The notes beneath the pieces were generated by a model. It saw only the letters and a list, made by a program, of their open reading frames with translations, was not told where the DNA came from and ran no database searches. The translations under genes and the position numbers were made by a program. Below are positions 5,355-43,514 of a stretch of DNA of 51,169 bases, piece after piece. Positions within the stretch are counted from its first letter, which is position 1; each line of letters begins with the position of its first letter. Origin of the DNA: Octopus sinensis (lineage: Eukaryota); contig NW_021834337.1 of the NCBI RefSeq assembly GCF_006345805.1, positions 1-51,169 of the forward strand. The letters run 5' to 3'.

Positions 5355-5386
<32 letters not shown>

Positions 5387-5655
5387 CCTTTCTACTATAG
5401 GCACAAGGTCTGAAGGTACTTAATTTATCGACCCCGAAAGGATGAAAGGCAAAGTCAGCCTCGGCAGAATTTGAACTCAGAACGTATATACAGTCGAAAT
5501 AACGCTAAGCATTTCCGCCGGCATGCTAACGATTCTGCCAGCTCACCCGCTTATTAATAGTAATAATAACAATGATAATAATAATAATAATAATGGTGAT
5601 GATGATGATGATGATGATGGTTGTGGTGGTGGTGATGATGATGATAATGATGATG

Positions 5656-8115: not shown

Positions 8116-8478
8116 GCAATGGCCCAGTGGTTAGGGCAGCGGACTCGCGGTCGGAGGATCGCGGTTTCGATTCCCAGACCGGGCGTTGTGTGTGTTTATT
8201 GAGCGAAAGCACCTAAAGCTCCAAGAGGCTACGGCTGGGGGTGGTGGCGACCCCTGTTGTACTCTTTCGCTCCAACTTTCTCCCACTCTTTCTTCCTCTT
8301 TCTTGTCCCCGACTTCCTACGCAACCGCTGATCCTGGATACGCATTCATCCATCCGTCGATGCTCTCGGTGTCGGGGGTTGACTTGCTTTCCCTTCTGCG
8401 GGTCTTACGAATAGCAAAGGACTACGGTTCGGACTCCTCCCACTACGTACGAAGACCGCTTCGTTCAACTAAACAAAA
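8116..8478 (+). mobile_element. tRNA-derived SINE, family A
   Basis: A-box TGGCCCAGTGGTTAG and B-box-like GGTTTCGATTCC; long collinear match to 30257-30622; follows a (CAA)n tract. Confidence 0.92.
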
Positions 8479-8629
8479 CTACACTGGCAAGCAATTCAGT
8501 TGAGTGATGAAGTCGGGCAGGACATATATGTTGTTAACGTATTTTCATTATCTTAAACTTGTGGAAGGATGGTATGTGCCTGATTGGTCGAAGGTGCGAT
8601 ATTTGCTTTACTAAAACTATCCATATAAC

Positions 8630-12207: not shown

Positions 12208-12489
12208 TATATATACACATATATATGTATGTTTATATATTATGTTTACACACACACACATACACGCACAAACATACACATATGTGTATATATGTATGTA
12301 TGTTTGTATTTGCCACTCTCATGCGGTGCATCTTCTCTTCTAGAAGGTTGGTGATGTTCTTATGCAGCTCCATACAGATATTACGTTAAGTACACGTGCC
12401 ACGCTGTTTGTTTGAGTTTCGAACTATCGATCGGCTACTTTCACTGTACACGAACGTATTATCATCCTCATTATTAATTAGTCTTATGG

Positions 12490-13060
12490 ATTGACGGAAG
12501 ATTTAGCGCGTCGAACAAAATGCATTACTGTAATTCTTGTGACACATTACGTTCTGACTTCAAATTAGGTAATTACCTTTGTCTTTCATACCTCCGGAGG
12601 GATAATTTAGAGTACCAGTTGAATCTTGGAATCAATGCCATTGATTGAATATCCGTCTTCCGAAATTTCTGGCTTTGTGGCTATAATTGAACAGTTAGGG
12701 TAAGAATTTGACGGAATCGTTAGAGCGTCTGGCCAAATGTCTTGTAGGAATTGTTATAGTATCTATTACCAATTATGCACTGAGATCAATTTAATCGACT
12801 AAATTTCTGCTCCTAAAATTTTCAGGTCTTGAGCCAATATTCTTTCTACCTATCTCTCACTAATTTTCGCGGAAGGCAAGCTCTTTTAATGGGATGTTAT
12901 ATCGACGCCAGTGTTCAGCTACTACTTATTTTATCGACCCCAAAAGGACATAAATTAAAATCAACCATCGCAGTTTCTGAATCCAGAAGATAAAGATTCG
13001 GTAGAAATGACGCCAAACACGTTTTCCGGCACGGTAGCAATTCTATCCGCTCGACACTTA
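12490..13060. mobile_element. Cluster of old degenerate family-B SINE copies (both strands)
   Basis: TTACGTTCTGACTTCAAAT, GAGTACCAGTT and TACTTATTTTATCGACCCCAAAAGGA motifs. Confidence 0.65.
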
Positions 13061-13239: not shown

Positions 13240-13597
13240 TATCTATCTATCCGCTCAGTCGAAGTCGACTCTCGGTTACTCGTTGGATCAGTGTCCTCCC
13301 GTCAGTTCTGTCCTGGGCCGCTTCTTTCAGATTAGCTATATTCATTCCGGTATCAGTCTTGATGGTGTCAAGCCAGCGGGTTCTTGGTCGGCCTCTTCCT
13401 CTCTTGCCACTGACCATTCCGAGCATGATGTCCTTCTCCAGGGATTTTCTCCGCATAATATGACCGAAATATGCCAATCTATGCTTGGTGATCCTAGCTT
13501 CTAGTGACATTTTCAGCCTGATCTGCTTAAGAACTTCTCCATTGGTGAGCCTCGCTGTCCATGGAATCCGTAAAAGTCTTCTCCAACACCAAAGCAA
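13240..13597 (-). mobile_element. 5'-truncated RTE/BovB-like LINE 3' end with (ATAG)n tail and 10-bp TSD
   Basis: Open frame LWCWRRLLRIPWTAR...YFGHIMRRKSLEKDIMLG...GKRGRGRPRTRWLD...RLRLSG*, the typical BovB/RTE ORF C-terminus. TSD CTTACAATGC at 13230-13239 and 13598-13607. Confidence 0.95.
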
Positions 13598-14941
13598 CTT
13601 ACAATGCAGCAAGTTTAAAAAAAACAAAAAAACTTTATATTTCGTGCGCAAACGCCTATTTTAGGGAAGATACAGTCAAAGAACCCTACATCTACATAGA
13701 CTCTGCCATTTTGGACAGCCGGAAGGGCAGTGACATCGTTTTAGTCAAATGCTTGTGCTAGCAGCAGCTTGTCTCTAAGAGATGGGGTTATTTGGTGTCA
13801 TGAAGCATTTGGCTGTACGTTAGCAACTGTGTTGGTGAAGGCAGATGTCGATGGTGGTAAATGCCATATTTGGTGCTGGTAGTGAAAGCCATGGTTGTTG
13901 TCAGTGGTCGTTTCCTATTTCATTTATCATTCAACTTCTGCTTCAAGAGAACCACAAAACTCTTCTTTCAATAAGAATCATATTAGCTGATTTCTACCAA
14001 GAAACTAAACAACACATAATCTCACCCATCTTTCCCCACAGTATTTCTAGCCTTGTGTTTCTGTATAAAAATCATTATTAACAATTAACTTGGCATGCAA
14101 TTTAAAATAGAGCTAAAATTACGGACAATGGAATTCGCGAGAGGATTTCTGTTGAATTCCCTATTATAAGACTTTTCATTTTGCTTATACATACGTCTTG
14201 ATTTTGAAGTCTTGTTCTAATGCAAGTAATTAACATCACGTGATAATTAATAGATGCCAATAAATTTGGACATTTACATTCAATCTTGACGGTTTTTCAA
14301 AAGGAACTGATCTTCTTAAATTTATCAGCCCATACAACAAGATTACCCTAAAATATGTCTTTTAAATTTATTTGATACAAAAGTTTTAAAACTAAAAAAA
14401 AATTAATTTATATATATATATAATATATGAAGAAATATACTGAGAGCAAAGAGAATTCAACATAAAATACTCTTAGATGAATCATATTATATTTAAATAG
14501 TATATTCTTTGTGTTCAAAGGCAATAGCCTGAAACAGCTTATTCCGTGAACACTTCGATGATTGGATTATAGGCTTTCTTATGTTGAATGTAGCTGTAAT
14601 GTTGTCTTTTGGTTCAACAGCTCATGTGTCTTTTACAAATAATATAATTGATTAATTGATTATAGATGACTTATTATTACCGATTTGTGTCCCTTTTCGG
14701 CCACAGATTGTTGCTCAAAATCATTGTCTCTAAGCTTTATTATACAACACGCCGCCCCTCCCTGCACAGAAATTCTTGTGTAGTTGGGTAGAGAGAGAGT
14801 TTAAATAGAATACATCCATAATGAAATGTCAATGTTTATCACTTATTACGTGGATATCCAAGCACATACATGCCAATGCAATGTATATATATACATATAT
14901 ATGCATATATGTGTATATGTATATATCTATATCTATATCTA

Positions 14942-29984: not shown

Positions 29985-30107
29985 GGCGAGTTTTGGTCGG
30001 CCTCGAGGCTATAGTAGATGGCACTCGTCTAAGGTGAAACGCAGTGGGACGAACCCGGAACCATGTTGTTGGGAAGCCAACGTCTTGCCACATAGTTACA
30101 CCTGCAA
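29985..30107 (-). mobile_element. 5' head of a family-C SINE
   Basis: Reverse complement GCTTCCCAACAACATGGTTCCGGGTTCGTCCCACTGCG...CTATAGCCTCGAGGCCGACCAA matches 11800-11885. Confidence 0.8.
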
Positions 30108-30256
30108 CTACGAATAGTGACAACGGCATATCATCAGCATCACCACCACCATCACCCCCCATCATCATCATTATCATCATCATCATCATCATCATCCTCA
30201 TCATCATCATCAACAACAACAACAACAACAACAGTAACAGCAGCAACAACAGCAGT

Positions 30257-30622
30257 GGAGGCGCAATGGCCCAGTGGTTTGGGCAGCGGACTCGCGGTCA
30301 GAGGATCGCGGTTTCGATTCCCAGACCGGGCGTTGTGTGTGTTTATTGAGCGAAAACACCTAAAGCTCCACGATGTTCCGGCAGGGGGTGGTGGCGACCC
30401 CTGTTGTACTCTTTTGCTCCAACTTTCTCTCACCCTTTCTTCCTGTTTATTGTCTCCGACTTCCTACGCAACCGCTGAGCCTGGATGCGCATTCATCCAT
30501 CCGTCGATGCTCTCAGTGTGGAGGATTGATCTGCTTTCTCTTCTGCGGGTCTTACGAATAGCAAAGGACCACGTTTCGGACTTATTCCATCTTGCGAGCT
30601 CTGGGATTAAGACCGTTCGCTC
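30257..30622 (+). mobile_element. Full-length tRNA-derived SINE, family A, with probable TSD
   Basis: GGAGGCGCAATGGCCCAGTGG...GGTTTCGATTCC; AACAGCAGCAACAACAGCA at 30236-30254 and 30623-30641 (low complexity). Confidence 0.92.
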
Positions 30623-30702
30623 AACAGCAGCAACAACAGCAACAACAACAACCATAGTATAATCCAGTTCAACTGCAATTTCCAGAAAAATATAGTTTCT
30701 TG

Positions 30703-30970
30703 TGAAGCCACGTGACTTAGTGGTTAAAGCATTCGGTTCACGATCACAAGAACGTGATTTCGAGGTCAAGACATTTTATTTCACGATGTTCCACTCCACT
30801 CAGTTAACAGAAAATGTGTTGTTTCTGTAATTCAAAAAGACAGACTACGTTAAGAGGTGCGCATGTCTGTGGAGTACTCACCCACTTGCACCCACTCGGT
30901 AGTTTCACGAGCAAGTTGTTCGGTTGATCAGATCAACAGGAACACTCATCGTGGTCACAGGCGGAGTACC
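30703..30970 (+). mobile_element. Degenerate tRNA-headed SINE family D
   Basis: Head GTGACTTAGTGGTTAAAGCATTCGGTTCACGATC; 3' part related to 20235-20410. Confidence 0.65.
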
Positions 30971-31173
30971 ATTTGTTTATAGATTCACTACATTGAACAT
31001 TAAGCGCTGGGTGTTATTGTGTGTTGTATGCGCATGCGTTCATGCGTGAGTGTGTGTGTTTATGTGTGTGCATGTATGTGTGTGTGTTTGTGTCTGTGTG
31101 TCTGTGTGTCTGTGTATCTGTGCGCGCGTATGTAGTCCCATGCGTACAAAGGTGTAGAAACATTTCTTTGTAA

Positions 31174-31767
31174 GGCGGTGAGCTGGCAGAAATGTTAGCA
31201 CGCCGGGCGAAATGCTTAGCTGTATTTCGTCTGCCGTTACGTTCTGAGTTCAAATTCTGCCGTGGTCGACTTTGCCTTTCATCTTTTCGGAGTCGATAAA
31301 TTAAGTACCAGTTACGCACTGGGGTAGATGTAATCGACTTAATCCGTTAGTCTGTCCTTGTTTGTCCCCTCTGTGTTTAGCCCCTTGTGAGTAGTAAAGA
31401 AATAGGTATTTCGTCTGCCGCTACGTTCTGAGTTCAAATTCCACCGAGGTCGACTTTGCCTTTCATCTTTTCGGAGTCGATAAATTAAGTACCAGTTACG
31501 CACTGGGGTCGATGTAATCGACTTAATTTGTTAGTCTGTCCTTGTTTGTCCCCTCTGTGTTTAGCCCCTTGTGAGTAGTAAAGAAATAGGTATTTCGTCT
31601 GCCGCTACGTTCTGAGTTCAAATTCCACCGAGGTCGACTTTGCCTTTCATCTTTTCGGAGTCGATAAATTAAGTACCAGTTACGCACTGGGGTCGATATA
31701 ATCGACTTAATCCGTTCGTCTGTCCTTGTTTGTCCCCTCTGTGTGTCTTGTGGGCAGTGAAGAAACA
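31174..31767 (+). mobile_element. Family-B SINE trimer: one head plus three 184-bp body/tail units, 18-bp TSD
   Basis: Units start GTATTTCGTCTGCCG at 31222, 31406 and 31590. TSD AGAAACATTTCTTTGTAA at 31156-31173 and 31768-31785. Core GTCGACTTTGCCTTTCATC..TCGG.GTCGATAAATTAAGTACCAG resembles the Meta-SINE domain (from memory). Confidence 0.95.
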
Positions 31768-32481
31768 AGAAACATTTCTTTGTAATCACGGATAAAGTTA
31801 CATAAAAGATATACGAAGCTATTCTTTCTTTTCTCTCATTGTTGTTTAGCCCCAGGTCAACTTTGATCTAACGGACCAAAGTTATTCCGTCCGTAACAAT
31901 CATTTCAAAGATATCCAGGACTACATTATAGAATACTCCCTCCCCCCCCCGTCTTTAAAGACAGTTGCCGCAAATCACGGGCAATGTTGCAGCTATTTCT
32001 AGCAAGTCAAACAACCACATACAATTTTCCCCTATTGGCTCGTCTTCGATGTTTTTGTTTTTGATCTCGTTCTTCTTGCTCTTGTTGTACTCGTTTCGTT
32101 TCAATTCTCTCTATTTCCCTCACCCACCTTTTTCTTCCTTTCATTGATTTTCTTCTTTTGTTAGAAGCAATAAGGCGCAGCATTCCAAGGATCCTTCTCA
32201 CCATTGTCGTCCTGTTTGTTTATTCATTTTTTGAGGTGAGGTAAACAAATATACAACCAAATCTGTCAGTTCAAACAAAATAAATGTGGGAAAGAAGAAT
32301 CTATAAATATGAAGAGAAAAAAAGAAAGAAACCGAAAAAGCAAACTCAAATTTCTTTTACCTAACCTGAGGTGATCTCTGTTTAAAGTGCGTGGAGGCCA
32401 GCGGAGTATATTGTGAAAGTGCTGGCCGAGCATTTTACACTCGGAACAGATAGGGAATTTTCTTTATAATAACAGTTATAA

Positions 32482-32877
32482 TACTCTCTACTAAAGGCCT
32501 AAAGACCGCAATTTTGGTTGAGGGGACTGGTAAATTACATCCACCCCAGTATTTCACTGGTACTTATTTTATCGATCCCGAAAGGATGAAAGGGAAAATC
32601 GACCTCGGTGGACTTTAAACTCAGAACGTAAAAACGGACGAAATACCTATTTCTTTACTACCCACAAGGGGCTAAACACAGAGTGGACAAACAAGGACAG
32701 ACAAACGGATTAAGTCGATTACATCGATCCCAGTATTCATCTGGTACTTAATTTATCGATCCCGAAAGGATGAAAGGTAAAGTCGACCTCGGCGGACTTT
32801 AAACTCAGAACGTAAAAACGGACGAAATACCCTTAAACATTTCGTCCGCGTACTAAACATTCTGCCAGCTCACCGCC
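32482..32877 (-). mobile_element. Family-B SINE dimer (head, body, young tail, body, old tail)
   Basis: Two core copies joined by GACGAAATACC|TATTTCTTTACTACCCACAAG (plus strand, ~32637-32670). Confidence 0.9.
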
Positions 32878-32904
32878 TTTATGATGATGATGATGATAAC
32901 AATA

Positions 32905-33478
32905 ATACTTGTCCTGATGCAGTACCAGACAGTGGCTCTCATGGCTTCTGATCTTAACTGATTGGAAGTGTTATCATGTACATTGTTTTGGTATAAAAGA
33001 TGGGCTACAGCAAATATTCTGCTCAATACCACATATTTGCTTGTCAGTTGTCCGACCATAACCAGTTGAGTATGTCCCTTAGTGGGTGATGATATGTGCA
33101 CCTCTGATCACCTCTAAACAGAAGTAGTGGAGGGAGGAGCATCATAGCCATATGTTGAGAGGAAATCTTTTGGGTTTGAATAATTCACCTCTGGAAACAT
33201 CGATGTTTTGTTCATCATCATTAAACAAACCTTATTCAGGGACCTTTTGAGTGGGATGGGCTCCTCGTCTTGAAGAAAATTCTAACTGGGCTCCACCTGC
33301 AAGGTCATGCGCTGTTTATCTTGATATGAGATCACAATGTCTCGCACATACGGTTGCGATGCATGTGCCTGGTGTACCTTTATCAGACAGGTAGTCATGA
33401 TGGGTATATTGGGCTTCATATATTTTATCCCAGTGTCACTTTGGTGACATGCACTGTTCACTCGATAATAATAATAAT
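32905..33478 (+). mobile_element. Probable retroposon 3' fragment ending in (ATA)n
   Basis: Complex, GC-richer 560-bp block between ATA repeats with an (ATA)n tail; no ORF and no second copy in the window. Confidence 0.4.
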
Positions 33479-34289
33479 TATGTTCCTGCTTTATCATTAT
33501 ATAACCTCGTATAATTTATTTTTAATTCTAATAATGCACGCCTAGAACCATAATTACGTCGTAATCAGAGACTGCCGGACAAAAGTCAATTTGTGTTTTA
33601 AGTTATATTCTATAATGTGCAAGTTTTGTCGAAATCGATGGAAAATATATGTAACAACATAACGACCTCACATTTCGGCAAATTAATCGTTTATATATGT
33701 ATATGCGAGCAAAACACCACCGTTCAATGGACGGTGCTGAGTTGTCAAACATTTAAACCAAATTTTCTCAAAACAACTTATCCGACCGTCTCATAGATCT
33801 CCCCTTTGAGAAACACTGATTTAACCTAAATTTGAGGAACCAGCAAAATAAGAAATAAAGATAGACTTTTTTCTATTCAAAAAAAAAAAACGAGTTTATT
33901 CACACAAATATGCAACCGAAGAGTTTAAAGTACCAGTAATGATAAGGCTGTTGACTGGGAGAACACGAACATGGTTTAAACAGTAAGCTTGGCAGGAAAG
34001 AAACGTGCCTTTAAACAGTACAAAAACAACAAAAAAGGTGCAGTTATGTACTGGGTGACGGAAGAAAAGCAAGACAAAAACGGCTTTATCGATCGCATTC
34101 TCACCTGGAATCGATTTTTGTAATTTTTTCAAGAGTTATACACGCCCTGATACCGTCGGTATCTACATAAAAAAATTGAGCATAATCGTTAAATTCATCA
34201 CCAGACGAAATATTTCTATACGTAATTCTCCGCCTTCTCTTTTTCCCCATAGCGTATGTACATCGCTAAACATTATTTAAGATAAAATA

Positions 34290-34790
34290 ATGGCACCTTG
34301 GACAAGTGTATTCTACTATAGCTTTGGGCCGAACAAAGCTTTGTGAGTGAATATGGTTGATGGTATCTGAAAGAAGCCCGTCCTAGATATATACATATAT
34401 ATGGTTGTGTGTCTGTGTTTGTTTCCCCACCATCGCTTGACAACGGATATCGGTGTGGTTACGTCACCGTAACTTAGCGGTAAGAAAAAGAAACCTATAG
34501 AATAAGATAGTATAAGGCGGCGAGCTGGCAGGAACGTTAGCACGTCGGGCGAAATGCTTAGCGGTATTTTGTCTGCCGTTACGTTCTGAGTTCAAATTCC
34601 GCGCAGGTCGACTTTGCCTTTCATCCTTTTGGGGTCGATTAAATAATTACCAGTTACTCACTGGGGCTGATGTAATCGACTTAGTCCGTTTTTCTGTTCT
34701 TGTTTGTCCCCTCTATGTTTAGCCCCTTATGAGCAATAAAGAAATAAGAATAAGTATTAGACTTACAAAGAATAAATAATCGGGTTGATT
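34290..34790 (+). mobile_element. Family-C SINE interrupted by a family-B SINE
   Basis: GGCACCTTGGACAAGTG...GAAAGAAGCCCGTC...CGTAACTTAGCGG; resumes AGAATAAGTATTAGACTTACAAAGA after the insert. Confidence 0.8.
34516..34747 (+). mobile_element. Full-length young family-B SINE monomer, nested in family C
   Basis: GGCGGCGAGCTGGCAG...GTTCAAATTCC...TTAGCCCCTTATGAGCAATAAAGAAATA. Confidence 0.93.
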
Positions 34791-35566
34791 TGTTCGTTAT
34801 GGCCGAATAAAAGAGAATAAAAGAAAAAAAAATCAGAAGCAAAATCATTCCATCATGTGATCTGTAACATTTTAGAAATTTTAGAAAATGGAACAATATA
34901 GAAAGGAAGTCGTAAAAAGCCACTGTAGAAATTTCTGATCGCCAAAAAAGAAATATAGAATTAACGCAGAAAGAATTCACTGCATCGTGAACATGAAAAG
35001 AGTAGAGAAACGAATTATTTTCGAGAGATTACATGTAATTTGCCTTTTAAGAATACGTCTTCAGTCTTTCAATGTAAAATAGGGTAATATAAATATATAC
35101 ACATACATACATACATACATACATACATACATACATACATACATACATACATACATACATACATACATACAAAAATAAATACACTGCCTAATTAAGCTTC
35201 TCAAAATCAAAAAGAAAGCTAATACAAAGACTACAGATCCAATCCGTCACTGGAACTGTAAAAATCTGTAAAACTTTCCAGAAGTTTATTATTTAAATAT
35301 ACATGAACATATCTAGATATGCAACTATATACATGAGAATACATACATAAAGCATACAAATCTGCATATACATACATGCATGCATACATACATACATCCA
35401 TACATAATATATACATACATGCATATATCTACATACCACGTTCTTCTTTCAGTTTCCTTCTAGAAAATGATCTCACAAGGTTTTTAAGACAGCTTGAGAC
35501 TAGTAGTAGACAATTGGCCACACGCTGGAGAATGAAGTGGAAAACATATGGTCGAAAAATAAACAC

Positions 35567-35625
<59 letters not shown>

Positions 35626-36239
35626 TTGGACATGGGCGATCGTTGTAGTCTTTCTTGTCTTGAGGTTCACAGCCAAATGGCTGGATGGATTCCCGTGAAA
35701 AATGGCACACATGTGGAGATGAATGCATATATTGGAATGCGGTTTATATGTTTTCCTAGCACCCATAGTTACCGAGAAAATCGATTAAAACTCTTCTAAT
35801 GGAATTCCCCTCTTTGTTCCGCCATTAAGGCAACCAGTTACTCACACAGCTGGCATATAGCGTTTCGCTAGCAACAAGAGGAGTACAGGATGTCAGTCAG
35901 CAAAAACTTCCACTATGCTGTCTCTCTTCTTTCACCTCTTTGTGGGGTTAATAATCTTAATGTTTAGTTACAGTTTCTCATTCAAACTACATAATAGGCA
36001 GAATTGTGGGATTAAGACAGTAGGGTGTTTGAGGGAGATTCGGCTGCTATTTCTACCAGGTCTAGCTACTATGTAGAGGTCTGAACTTAATTTTCCTTCA
36101 CATACATGCATTTCAAAAATTTAATATAATCTTTTTCATAAATCAACTATCGTAAATATTTTACACGATGACCTCACATTTTCTAAGCTGCTAGTATATA
36201 TATATGTGTGTATGTGTATGTGTGTGCGTGTGTGCGCGT

Positions 36240-36275
<36 letters not shown>

Positions 36276-36794
36276 ATAGGTATATACACGCACGGGACGC
36301 ATGTATTCGGATAGATATACAGATATATTTGGAACTTAGCTAGCGGAGACCGCTAGATAGACGATAGATCGAAAGATCGATCGGTAGAGAGATAGATTAA
36401 TTGATAGATAGAGATTTTGTTATCTAGCAGACTAGGTAAATAGGAAGATTATTAATATCTAGCGCGCGATGGCTCCTAACACACACACACAGGCGCCTGT
36501 TTCTCTGCTTTTTTGCTCTGAAGCGACATCAGTTTCTAAGGCCTTTATACATTATTTAAATCCGCCTAACATGCATATGCGGTCGTTTTGATTATATTTG
36601 ATTATATATTCTCTCTGAATTCTTTGTTTTTCAATAAAGGAGGAAAATTACAAAATCCTTATTTCGGAGTGTGGGTGGGGTGGGGGTGGAAGCGTAAGTT
36701 TATTATTTTTTGCCCCTTTCTATCGTGTCTTGACATACAAAATAGGGGGTATGTAAAAATTTCCTTGTGTTAATAAATAAAATAATCCTCACAA

Positions 36795-37497
36795 GGCTTG
36801 AAATTATAACGACCCTGGTACTTAATTTATTGAACCCCGAATGATGAAAGGCAAAGTCGATCTCAGCGGAATTTGAACTCGGATCGTAAAGACATGAAAT
36901 ATTTAAGCCTTTTTGTCCGGCGTTCTAACGTTTCTGCCAATTCACCCGCCTTGATATTTGGTTTCAAATTTTGGCACAAGGCCAGCAATTTCGGGGAAGG
37001 AGCTAAGTCTATAAACTCATTGGTACATATTTTATCGACCCTAAAAGAATGAAAGGCAAGATCAACTTCGGGAAATTTGAACCCAGAACTTAATGACGGA
37101 CGAAATGTCGTTAAGCATTTCCTATTGTATGCACAAGGCCTGAAATTTTGGGGATGGGGGATAGTCGATTACATCGGCCCCAGTACCCAACTTATGTTAT
37201 CGACCCCGAAAGGATCGAAGAGGTAAAATCGACCTCGGTGTAATTTGAGATCAGAACGTAATGACAGATGAAATACCTATTTCTTTACTACCCACAGAGA
37301 GGACAAACACGGACAGACAAACGGATTCAGTCGATTACATCGACCCCAGTGCGTAACTGGTACTTAATTTATCGACCCCGGAAGGATGAAAGGCAAAGTC
37401 GACCTCGGCGGAATTTGAACTCAGAACGTAGCGGCAGACGAAATGCCACTAAGCATTTTGACCGGCATGTTATAACAATCCTGTCAGCTTGCCGCCT
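36795..37497 (-). mobile_element. Array of family-B SINE units, including a young head-less unit inside an old copy
   Basis: Four core copies; junction GAAATACC|TATTTCTTTACTACCCACA at ~37270-37296. Confidence 0.88.
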
Positions 37498-37504
37498 TAA
37501 TAAT

Positions 37505-39290
37505 GATAGTAAGAATGATGTCTTTTTGGGAGGCACAAGTGACAGAAGAGGTGGACAACAGAAAAAAAACAAGAAAGACAAAATGTCGGTAGTTACATAG
37601 AACGAAATGATAAAAAATAATGCAAAAGGAAATTACATTTATACAGTAAAAATTAAACTAAAAGATAGTGTTAATAATGTGAGCTTCCTAATTACAAGAG
37701 GATATCTAGGGTCAATCAAGGGTTCCTACTAAACCAGATTTCTCCGAATGTCAAAAGCAAGTGCTTTCTTCGATTCCTGTTCTCCGACTCTCTGGTCTGT
37801 GCTTGCATCGATGCATTCTCCACTCTTGCTATTTTTGCCACTTTTACCCGCCTTTCAATAAATTCGCATAGAACAGCATTTTCTTCCATATATTCACTTT
37901 CTTCTTCAAGTGAAACTTGAAAACAATCGATGTGGGTGCCACCAACAAGATCTTTCAACCTCGTTCATCAGACAATATCTTCGCAGTAGCTACCATATAA
38001 AAGATCGCCTTGCCTGCCTAGTTAATGGAAGGCGGCAAGGCATGAGGGTTGACCATATCGAACACTTTAGACTGATCCAAATTTATCAGAGATCCACAAA
38101 AGCACGATTACTTCCCAGTCTCCTTCATTCTGTTCCCCATAAATTAGGGGTCGTCGAAGATAGACCTGTTCGGGATCCCACATGTTTGCATTTCGCCAAC
38201 TAGACTACCGCTGACAAGCGCCAACCTTTTCACTGACGCCTTAACCAAAATCTTAAAAGCTCTATTTGGAAATGTTATGGGCCGAAAATTACCTAGCACG
38301 TCTCCTTTCTTAGCCAGTTAAGGTATGCATCTGCCGAGAGGCCAGGATACAAACCTAGCATGAAATCATAAAATTCATGGTGCAGACCGTCCAAAAAGAG
38401 AGTTTTGTTACTGGTGCAACCGCTCATCGCCTCCCGCATTTCGGTGGCCATTATCGACTTTCGCAGACCTCTCCGTTCACGGCCAAGAGCTGTGACAGGC
38501 CATCCAGGTACAGATTAAAGTCTACTACCGTCGCCAACCCATCACCCTTCCCAAACTGTCGTGCGAAGTGCTGTGGGAAAGCCGCAGATAACTGCTTGGA
38601 ACCGAGTAAAATGCACCCGTCCCAGTCCGTCAGACTCCATCGTGTTTTTGTGGCCACGCTGTGTTTCCACCGTTCTGGCCCATCGGACGGCTTTAATTCC
38701 TTCGTGTTTGAGCGCACAAGCCTTAGTTCAGACAAAACGGTCTACCTGTTTCGTCTCGAAGAAATGGTCAAGGCTCATTCTCGTCGCGACCACGTTGGTC
38801 GTGATGCCTTTACTAATTGCCTCTTCTAAGTTACTAACTAGTTCTCCCTCTCATCTATTTCTTTCTATCGCTTGCTCTTAATTAAATACTATCCTGCTCT
38901 AATCGTCCACTTCAAGGCAACACACACTGGCTGTTGACTATTTCCCCCATACACCTACCACTTAACTAGTTCAGTAATCCTATCTCTGTCGCTTTTACAT
39001 GCTAGCAAAGATGCATTATTCTTCCGGTAACGGGGTGCCTGTCAAGGGAACCTATTTAAATTGACTGAGCAGATCTCAAAGTTATGGTCTATATAGCCAA
39101 CTATTTAGAACTGTGGACATCTTATGCTATCCCTATCCACTAACAACAAATACCCTACAATCTGGACGACCCGCGCTGAGCTTGCTCCATGTTCAATCTG
39201 ATTCATCAAGGAAATCTAGTCGGTACCTGTCAGACAATTCCGAAAACTCAGTGCACTATGGTTTCATACAACTTTTCTTCTATCACCTGG
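37505..39290 (-). pseudogene. Decayed, internally deleted Tx1/L1-clade LINE ORF2 (endonuclease end, RT start, C-terminus and 3'UTR)
   Basis: Minus-strand peptides LSDRYRLD, CPQF*IVGYIDH, PRYRKNNASLL (GYWKLNxSLL-like), LDGLHHEFY, KGDVLGNFRPITFPN..KIL, QTCGIPNRSIFDD and LINLDQSKVFDMV, then a jump to FKFHLKKKV. Confidence 0.9.
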
Positions 39291-42800: not shown

Positions 42801-42834
42801 TTATCTATCTAACCATCCATCTATCTATCTACCT

Positions 42835-43064
42835 ATTTCTTTATTACCCACAAGGGGCTAAACACAGAGGGGACGAATAAGGACACACAAACGGATTAAG
42901 TCGATTACATCGACCCCAGTGCGTAGCTGGAACTTAATTTCTCGACCCCGAAAGGATGAAAGGCAAAGTCGACCTCGGCGGAATTTGAACTCAGAGCGTA
43001 ACGACAGACGAAATACAGCTACGCATTTCGCCCGGCGTGCTAACGTTTCTGCCATATCGCCGCC
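42835..43064 (-). mobile_element. Full-length young family-B SINE monomer with 16-bp TSD
   Basis: Reverse complement of the 34516-type element; ATCTATCTATCTACCT at 42819-42834 and 43065-43080. Confidence 0.93.
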
Positions 43065-43514
43065 ATCTATCTATCTACCTGTCTGTCTGTCTGTCTAGAT
43101 TGCCCGAGGTTTCTCCTTCGGTATCAACGATGAGGATTCAGATGTTCAATGAAGTGAATTATCTGCTCATTGAACTAACATATGAGTGGCTGAATATTCC
43201 ACAGCCAAGTAAACTGTTAACGTAACTTTCAGGCTGCGCATGACACAGCGCGTGTGACACAAGACTGAACCATTGAATTACAGTCCATCCGACGGACTCC
43301 TATAAGGTTTCCTTTAAAACTCCCGAAGCCAATGCCACTCGCAATTTAAAAATCGATCCGAGGAAATTAAAAAAAATAACATCTGCCCAAGATGAAGAGC
43401 GGTCTGATCGAACCCAGGATCTCATTGCAGGAAAGCGAACCACTTCCTCACTCGGCAATGGTGATAATGATGGTAGTTTCTCCTAGTCAGCGAAAGACGA
43501 TTCTGCAATTTATA

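Follow-up and report, generated by a model that had tools for sequence, protein, structure and literature searches.

A base-precise tail-to-body junction recurring in composite SINEs of an Octopus sinensis contig

Composition of the element and of its comparison loci

The DNA analysed (the window, 51,169 nucleotides of Octopus sinensis contig NW_021834337.1) is microsatellite-rich animal DNA with many copies of one tRNA-type SINE, which is probably of the octopus OR1/OR2 type. The copies are short, non-coding and interspersed, many of them dispersed through the window, and their copy number is high; a 1.2-kb stretch around the element considered here, which also includes another repeat, is matched by 100,336-154,968 contigs per run. 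A- and B-box-like motifs were read by eye in the SINE head; ARAGORN returned 0 tRNAs, and Rfam no tRNA match at E values up to 1 over 30900-38000. The target-site duplications (TSDs) that go with SINE membership are perfect 18-bp repeats at loci H and M, are represented by 8-nt best matches only at loci I and J, and were not found at locus L. Our evidence comes from the window together with contigs from four of the 24 public runs listed (X23, X24, X5 and X11), with three junction loci analysed.

Locus I (32482-32877, minus strand) consists, in order, of a head, body 1, a Y tail, body 2 and an O tail. The head (32832-32877) is that of an old tRNA-like SINE, the resident. Body 1 (32713-32831) carries resident-type letters to at least +97 (numbering from the first G of GGTATTTC as +1) and has a T5 run at 32818. 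It is followed by a young Y tail (32648-32712), the 3' end of which meets GGTATTTC between 32648 and 32647, and by body 2 (32529-32647), the resident body, with a T5 run at 32634 and a T4 run at 32598. The O tail (32482-32528) is of O2 type and heavily decayed, and the flanking repeat is degenerate, its best exact match being 8 nt.

Two further loci contain the same junction. Locus H (31174-31765, plus strand) has a head and three body/tail units with a period of 184, two identical junctions and a different last tail, which represents a third tail type; one perfect 18-bp TSD (31156-31173 and 31768-31785, plus strand) bounds the whole trimer. Locus L (36960-37496, minus strand) runs from an old head through a young Y body, a Y tail, the junction, an old body, an O2 tail and a second junction, in the same hairpin, to another old body and an O1 tail; it has the appearance of a three-layer nest, and another monomer begins directly behind it (about 36950-36790). 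The Y monomers J (34516-34746, plus strand) and M (42834-43064, minus strand) served as comparison copies. M lies in a GATA/GACA microsatellite, and its perfect 18-bp TSD (42817-42834 and 43063-43080, minus strand) starts with AGGTA, the first letters of the junction.

The junction, its recurrence and the predicted hairpin

The earlier note had described at locus I a junction already seen at another site, and this holds: TAGTAAAGAAATAGGTATTTC occurs four times at three loci (31392 and 31576 on the plus strand, 32660 and 37290 on the minus strand). The joint of the Y tail with GGTATTTC is base-identical at all three, and the downstream tail differs at each. Seven Y tails are present at five loci in the window; four run on into GGTATTTC (twice at H, once each at I and L) and three are terminal (the last of H, J and M). 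All four internal Y tails end in TAGTAAAGAAATA, and the three terminal ones differ there.

Beyond the window, at least 5 of the 31 contig pieces listed bridge the junction (1/8 in X23, 3/8 in X24, 1/8 in X5 and 0/7 in X11), each with at least 31 letters on either side; with 20-29 mismatches (~80-85% alike) these pieces must stem from other loci. Beside the junction we observed, as a rough estimate, a depth excess of ~0.23-0.28 of the Y-tail depth in three runs. The excess is absent in organism C (X11), where the junction looks scarce; its Y-tail/body depth ratio, again rough, is 0.39, compared with 1.89-2.22 for the remaining three runs. Pattern scans returned 0 loci both for the junction (metagenome contigs) and for the body motif (contigs of metagenomes, prokaryotes and viruses). 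Within the window no non-SINE match to the Y tail, as a partner LINE might provide, was found.

The one clear mismatch of the locus I tail, at 32684, was considered and rejected as a young-subfamily letter; what remains at that position could be a third letter, such as L has. The Y-tail letter is uniform there in organism C (93.5%), whereas the remaining three runs are split (61-66%), which suggests that a Y subfamily expanded in one lineage.

The junction point coincides with the edge of a predicted secondary structure. A 12-bp stem-loop, predicted at 32818-32849 (minus strand), spans the head and the start of the body, and the 3' edge of its loop is body +1/+2. Folding at locus I gives -16.2 kcal/mol (z -3.66), and the same stem is found in the heads of H, J and M (z -3.86, -2.18 and -2.83, respectively); it is not the best fold in the heads of B and K, nor the minimum free energy fold in that of L. 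Pairing is maintained in 93% of cells across six heads. In these six no two-sided change was found as covariation, and shuffles did equally well, so the support for the stem consists of its folding energy and the 93% pairing. The locus I hairpin is fully paired despite 19% divergence of the head, as if the inverted repeat had been corrected or selected. The last letters of the Y tail, GAAATA, closely resemble the 5' arm of the stem, GAAATG, and are complementary to TATTTC. The hairpin of L has also received another tail, of O2 type, whose join lies 12 nt upstream of the Y junction; the site thus attracted more than one tail type. Retrozymes are ribozyme-based circular RNA retroelements; no ribozyme family appeared among the 13 Rfam matches at E values up to 1 over 30900-38000, so that the self-cleaving ribozyme by which a retrozyme would be recognized was not found in the unit, nor was the unit assigned to any other known RNA family.

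Some letters follow the junction further into the body. CACCG at +39 is present in every junction-following body (31442 and 31626 on the plus strand, 32610 and 37240 on the minus strand) and in 0/7 other bodies. Its association has a post hoc p of 0.008, it is a CpG site, and the mechanism that we favour below gives no account of it. The second bodies of I and L have T at +50 in common, and the +17 letter of the young body of L recurs in those bodies of H that follow a junction. The CACCG and +17 patterns hint that donors can carry more than a few bases of a second body.

Age of the parts and the doubled body

Bodies 1 and 2 of locus I are identical at 105/114 positions, completely so over +1 to +38, with none of their 9 differences before +39; either differs from the six Y-type bodies compared at 17-23/114. 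They share 10 non-Y letters (+12, 14, 15, 16, 31, 35, 72, 95, 96 and 97, with +1 left out), some of which may be old-family letters rather than private ones. The description of the bodies as locally mutated is borne out: within the window GAGTTTAAAGTCC (32806, 32622) and TCCGTTTTTACG (32822, 32638) are confined to these two bodies, and GGGATCGAT is restricted to the locus (32763, 32731 and 32579), with the usual form, GAGTTCAAATT, in 8 other bodies. The further claim that the shared variants are absent from young monomers holds within the window as well. Beyond it, the letters at the two GTTTAAAG positions (32801/32797 and 32617/32613, i.e. +31 and +35) are rare, the other letter making up 93.4-98.0% of the summed paralog depth in four runs (paralogous contigs at 80% likeness, figures from the rows listed, summed contig depth not being copy number); GGGATC (+72) is a weaker marker than had been implied, the other letter accounting for 86-88% of paralog depth in the four runs. 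About 100 bp of the resident is present twice, as had been proposed; the tract, estimated earlier at ~80-100 bp, extends to at least +97, and hence lies at the top of that range or beyond it. Four positions of body 1 inside it (+39, +50, +81 and +106) show the Y/consensus letter instead, so body 1 is either patchy or was mutated later.

The Y tail is a young piece in an old resident SINE, as the earlier reading of a young tail between two bodies had it. Relative to the Y majority (the four other Y copies in the window, H1, J, M and L1), head and body 1 together differ at 24/167 positions versus 1-2/65 for the Y tail (Fisher p 0.004-0.018); by part the values are 9/48 for the head, 15/119 for body 1 and 2/65 for the Y tail, one of the two being a tie in the majority. 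Old age of the resident is also indicated by the orthologous site in related organisms. A contig of organism C (X11 record 1, at single-copy depth), which over 361 positions differs at 38 letters and has 6 gaps, with a flank ~10.5% diverged, is collinear with the window across flank and O tail and into body 2 as far as 32593, i.e. body 2 is present from +55; contigs of organisms D and E are likewise collinear up to 32572 and 32562. Presence of the O tail and half of body 2 in organism C makes the resident old. None of the contigs listed spans locus I, and no empty allele was seen among them, the orthologous ones ending at 32572, 32562 and 32593, and since the last of these positions is inside body 2, organism C may carry the whole dimer. 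A clock test for insertion after the split from organism C gave weak values (p 0.08-0.34). Joints that skip about 184 were not used as an empty allele, their sides being short and paralogous monomers being able to yield them. Cover in X5 has a gap at 32404-32444.

Had the dimer arrived whole, either from a dimeric master or from a chimeric transcript made by template jumping or RtcB-type RNA ligation, the variants would have been in both bodies from the start. The earlier note had named a widespread subfamily with a dimeric master as the circumstance that would overturn its reading, and our results do not show one. The shared variants are rare. Pol III terminates at T runs of length four and above, and its masters cannot carry them; the letters common to the locus I bodies newly make a T5 in both, and a common letter makes a T4 in all three bodies of H, monomer M being without it, which makes a transcribed master an improbable source of these letters. 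Between I and L, the two Y-O dimers, the O tails are 18/46 apart and the Y tails 3/51 (p = 1e-4), which leaves the O tails unrelated at the level that a shared master needs. An old head and an old tail flank the near-perfect Y tail at I, and the young head predicted by a simple template jump is present neither there nor at L; a simple reverse transcriptase jump from an O RNA to a full Y RNA was rejected on the same ground, the heads at I and L being old. Nor did we find the equally aged, shared modules of an Alu-like dimeric family, or the bodies free of T4 and longer runs that Pol III read-through would require. Arrival as a whole would account for the single junction sequence at all loci and for the single perfect TSD around H, and RNA could plausibly be cleaved at the predicted hairpin loop where the junction lies. 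In the part of the work on U6/L1 chimeras drawn on here, RtcB ligates U6 to cleaved L1 RNA ahead of retrotransposition (PMC6789731). On balance we regard a dimer that arrived whole as improbable.

Insertion into resident SINEs at a fixed point and the origin of the duplication

There is good support for a fixed point at which insertions into resident SINEs took place. At L the same junction is seen with almost no doubling: the head is old (9/49) and the body plus tail young (8/168; p 0.004), body 1 being of Y type from +12 on (4/119), and the switch within +13 amounts to a clean insertion of one body+tail unit. The comparison makes the long duplication at I a variable by-product and the fixed insertion point the main phenomenon. 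What is constant is the 3' junction, and what varies is the point at which the new copy rejoined the resident. In both old residents (I and L) the second body is of resident type from +9/+12, and this short fixed 3' overlap looks as priming would make it. The L head reads GGCATTTC and the L junction GGTATTTC, with a difference at +3, so the donor probably brought the junction letters. The AGGTA start of the TSD of M suggests microhomology priming and, taken with the +3 difference at L, that donor 3' ends may already include junction letters.

For locus I we favour, at roughly an even chance, that Y-family SINE RNA was reverse-transcribed into the resident, independently at each locus, and that homology-joined cDNA doubled ~100 bp. 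An old O-tailed SINE was resident at locus I. The Y tail meets GGTATTTC, at the loop edge of the predicted hairpin, base-precisely at three loci with three different downstream tails. Priming at the junction point could have proceeded via a nicked hairpin, or by pairing of a donor RNA that ended in the junction letters with the resident, and one transcribed junction locus could then have supplied junction-ended RNAs. The Y-body cDNA would have annealed to the homologous resident body in place of a normal 5' junction, with retention of the resident head and a variable switch point, within +13 at L and at +97 or beyond at I; the trimer at H would be the product of later unequal exchange. We infer the RNA donor, the mode of priming and that the doubling is as old as the insertion; for the last of these, the two divergences, 9/114 between the bodies and 1-2/65 for the tail, are compatible with each other (p 0.27-0.53). 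The consensus letters within body 1 and CACCG at +39 count against this mechanism, and three loci are a small sample.

The doubling may also be younger than the insertion. The same targeted insertion could have left an ordinary short duplication, with body 1 taking on resident sequence later, either through gene conversion by body 2 (at a distance of 184 bp) or through misaligned exchange with an empty allele that was still segregating. L provides a clean short-overlap product of the kind required, the consensus letters scattered in body 1 would fit patchy conversion, and unequal exchange acts on the units of H (bodies 2 and 3 differ at 1/114, tails 1 and 2 at 2/65). However, rare letters are common to the bodies at two of the three junction loci, which would mean a high rate for bodies ~15% diverged, and the divergence between the bodies is not younger than the tail. 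We consider later conversion possible but doubtful. Of the earlier proposal that insertion duplicated or converted the resident, giving in effect a long homology-guided TSD, insertion into a resident and the presence of ~100 bp twice therefore stand; doubling at the moment of insertion is one of the two foremost routes, later conversion giving the same pattern.

Reverse transcription could in principle be dispensed with if repair of a break in the resident body had switched template to a junction-bearing multimer elsewhere, copied through its tail and junction, and returned to the resident or its sister on the upstream side of the break (ends-in gap repair). Donors with the junction look abundant, judged by the rough depth excess of three runs given above, and such repair yields a base-identical junction, keeps the resident head and flanks, and accommodates the CACCG and +17 patterns if donors contained part of a second body. 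The return point, however, is within +11 at both old residents, whereas DNA recombination would be expected to resolve deeper in the body, at the longest stretch of identity between donor and resident; with two loci to judge from, we hold gap repair to be unlikely.

A further possibility, which we consider unlikely, is that a headless 184-bp body+tail unit, possibly as a circular or junction-ended RNA (cleaved at the anticodon-like loop and ligated), homes by homology into resident SINEs genome-wide in one octopus lineage. If this is so, such a unit carries a single junction to loci numbering in the thousands and equips old SINEs anew with the currently active family's tail, i.e. a SINE parasitizes dead copies of its own family.

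At H letters at +64 and +71 are common to all three bodies, one of them making the T4. The H pattern fits later unequal exchange on the sequence evidence, and the locus (184 bp x 2.8) is probably an incipient SINE-derived tandem array formed from a dimer by such exchange. The head-to-tail homogeneous units of a SINE-derived satellite are seen in small form only at H; locus I has two bodies with one Y tail and one unrelated tail.

Relation to known systems and other repeats of the window

New L1 and Alu insertions can form chimeras with an older copy by recombination or conversion, in some cases with long duplications, and Zepp elements self-insert; to our knowledge, chimeras of new and resident L1 or Alu copies are sporadic and without a recurrent base-precise junction. 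Octopus tRNA-derived SINEs, OR1 and OR2, were reportedly described by Ohshima and Okada in 1994. The window copies, provisionally assigned here, resemble them in having a tRNA-like head with A- and B-box-like motifs, a common body and alternative tails. OR1 and OR2 are listed as CORE-SINEs in the portions of two papers used here, which do not mention a fixed tail-to-head junction (PMC4824008, PMC4758252). We found no description of the tail-body junction in the literature searched, which left out most subscription papers, and a dimeric octopus consensus may already stand in Repbase or SINEBase.

The closest analogues of H are tandem SINE structures. Multimers in the bivalve S. broughtonii, TSD-(SINE)n-TSD, likewise have a full head first, later units with the same head truncation and one outer TSD, but, in the sections of that paper relevant here, their internal tails are truncated, of the same family and ascribed to unequal recombination (PMC11481361); the junction loci have a complete, younger internal tail of another type than the last, and one junction at unrelated loci. 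Squamate SINE-derived satellites, as far as the extract considered goes, are similarly tandem arrays whose units, ~150-180 bp long, derive from part of a SINE and retain its native ends, and arise by internal duplications with variable boundaries (PMC10702118), whereas the junction loci have a fixed unit boundary and a foreign tail.

With respect to mechanism, R2 is similar in forming its 5' junction through homology of the cDNA with the target and in its fixed insertion point in a repeated sequence; according to the excerpt used, R2 employs its own site-specific nuclease, ~28 nt and an rDNA target (PMC13580325). In contrast, the element described here is a non-coding SINE that targets its own family, and its switch point varies between less than 13 and about 100 bp. 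U6/L1 chimeras made by RtcB ligation also join a defined RNA 3' end to a 5'-truncated retroelement, but in the account available their 5' partner is full length and young (PMC6789731), whereas the head at locus I is old and resident.

SINE superfamilies are thought to persist by swapping tails and LINE partners via recombination, termed 'mosaic evolution' in the relevant parts of two papers (PMC11481361, PMC5786205). Intermediates of tail exchange are seldom seen, and the junction loci appear to be abundant, datable ones, in which the 3' point is constant and the 5' switch point varies; they could let a genome-wide census measure tail swapping and the start of SINE-derived tandem arrays. For O. 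vulgaris, 900 recently active SINE families are listed in the portion of the source consulted (PMC13282606); mosaics of the present kind could inflate SINE family counts and distort age landscapes, a connection to the O. vulgaris figure that is ours.

Other repeats in the window were noted in passing. Two monomers with O2-type ends, at 5384-5551 and about 36790-36950 (both minus strand), miss the last 40-55 bp of the body and the start of the tail; their deletion ends are similar, near TTTCAGG, and they perhaps form a short subfamily. Broken reading frames at 13247-13660 and 37700-38950 (minus strand) look by eye like remnants of a LINE reverse transcriptase; Pfam gave no match for 13250-13660. 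Very old SINE copies, ~30% diverged, are clustered in tandem and head-on at 12470-12830 (plus strand) and 12897-13060 (minus strand). Two copies of a second SINE family, with a tRNA-like start and similar translations, lie at 8135-8503 and 30096-30662 (plus strand).
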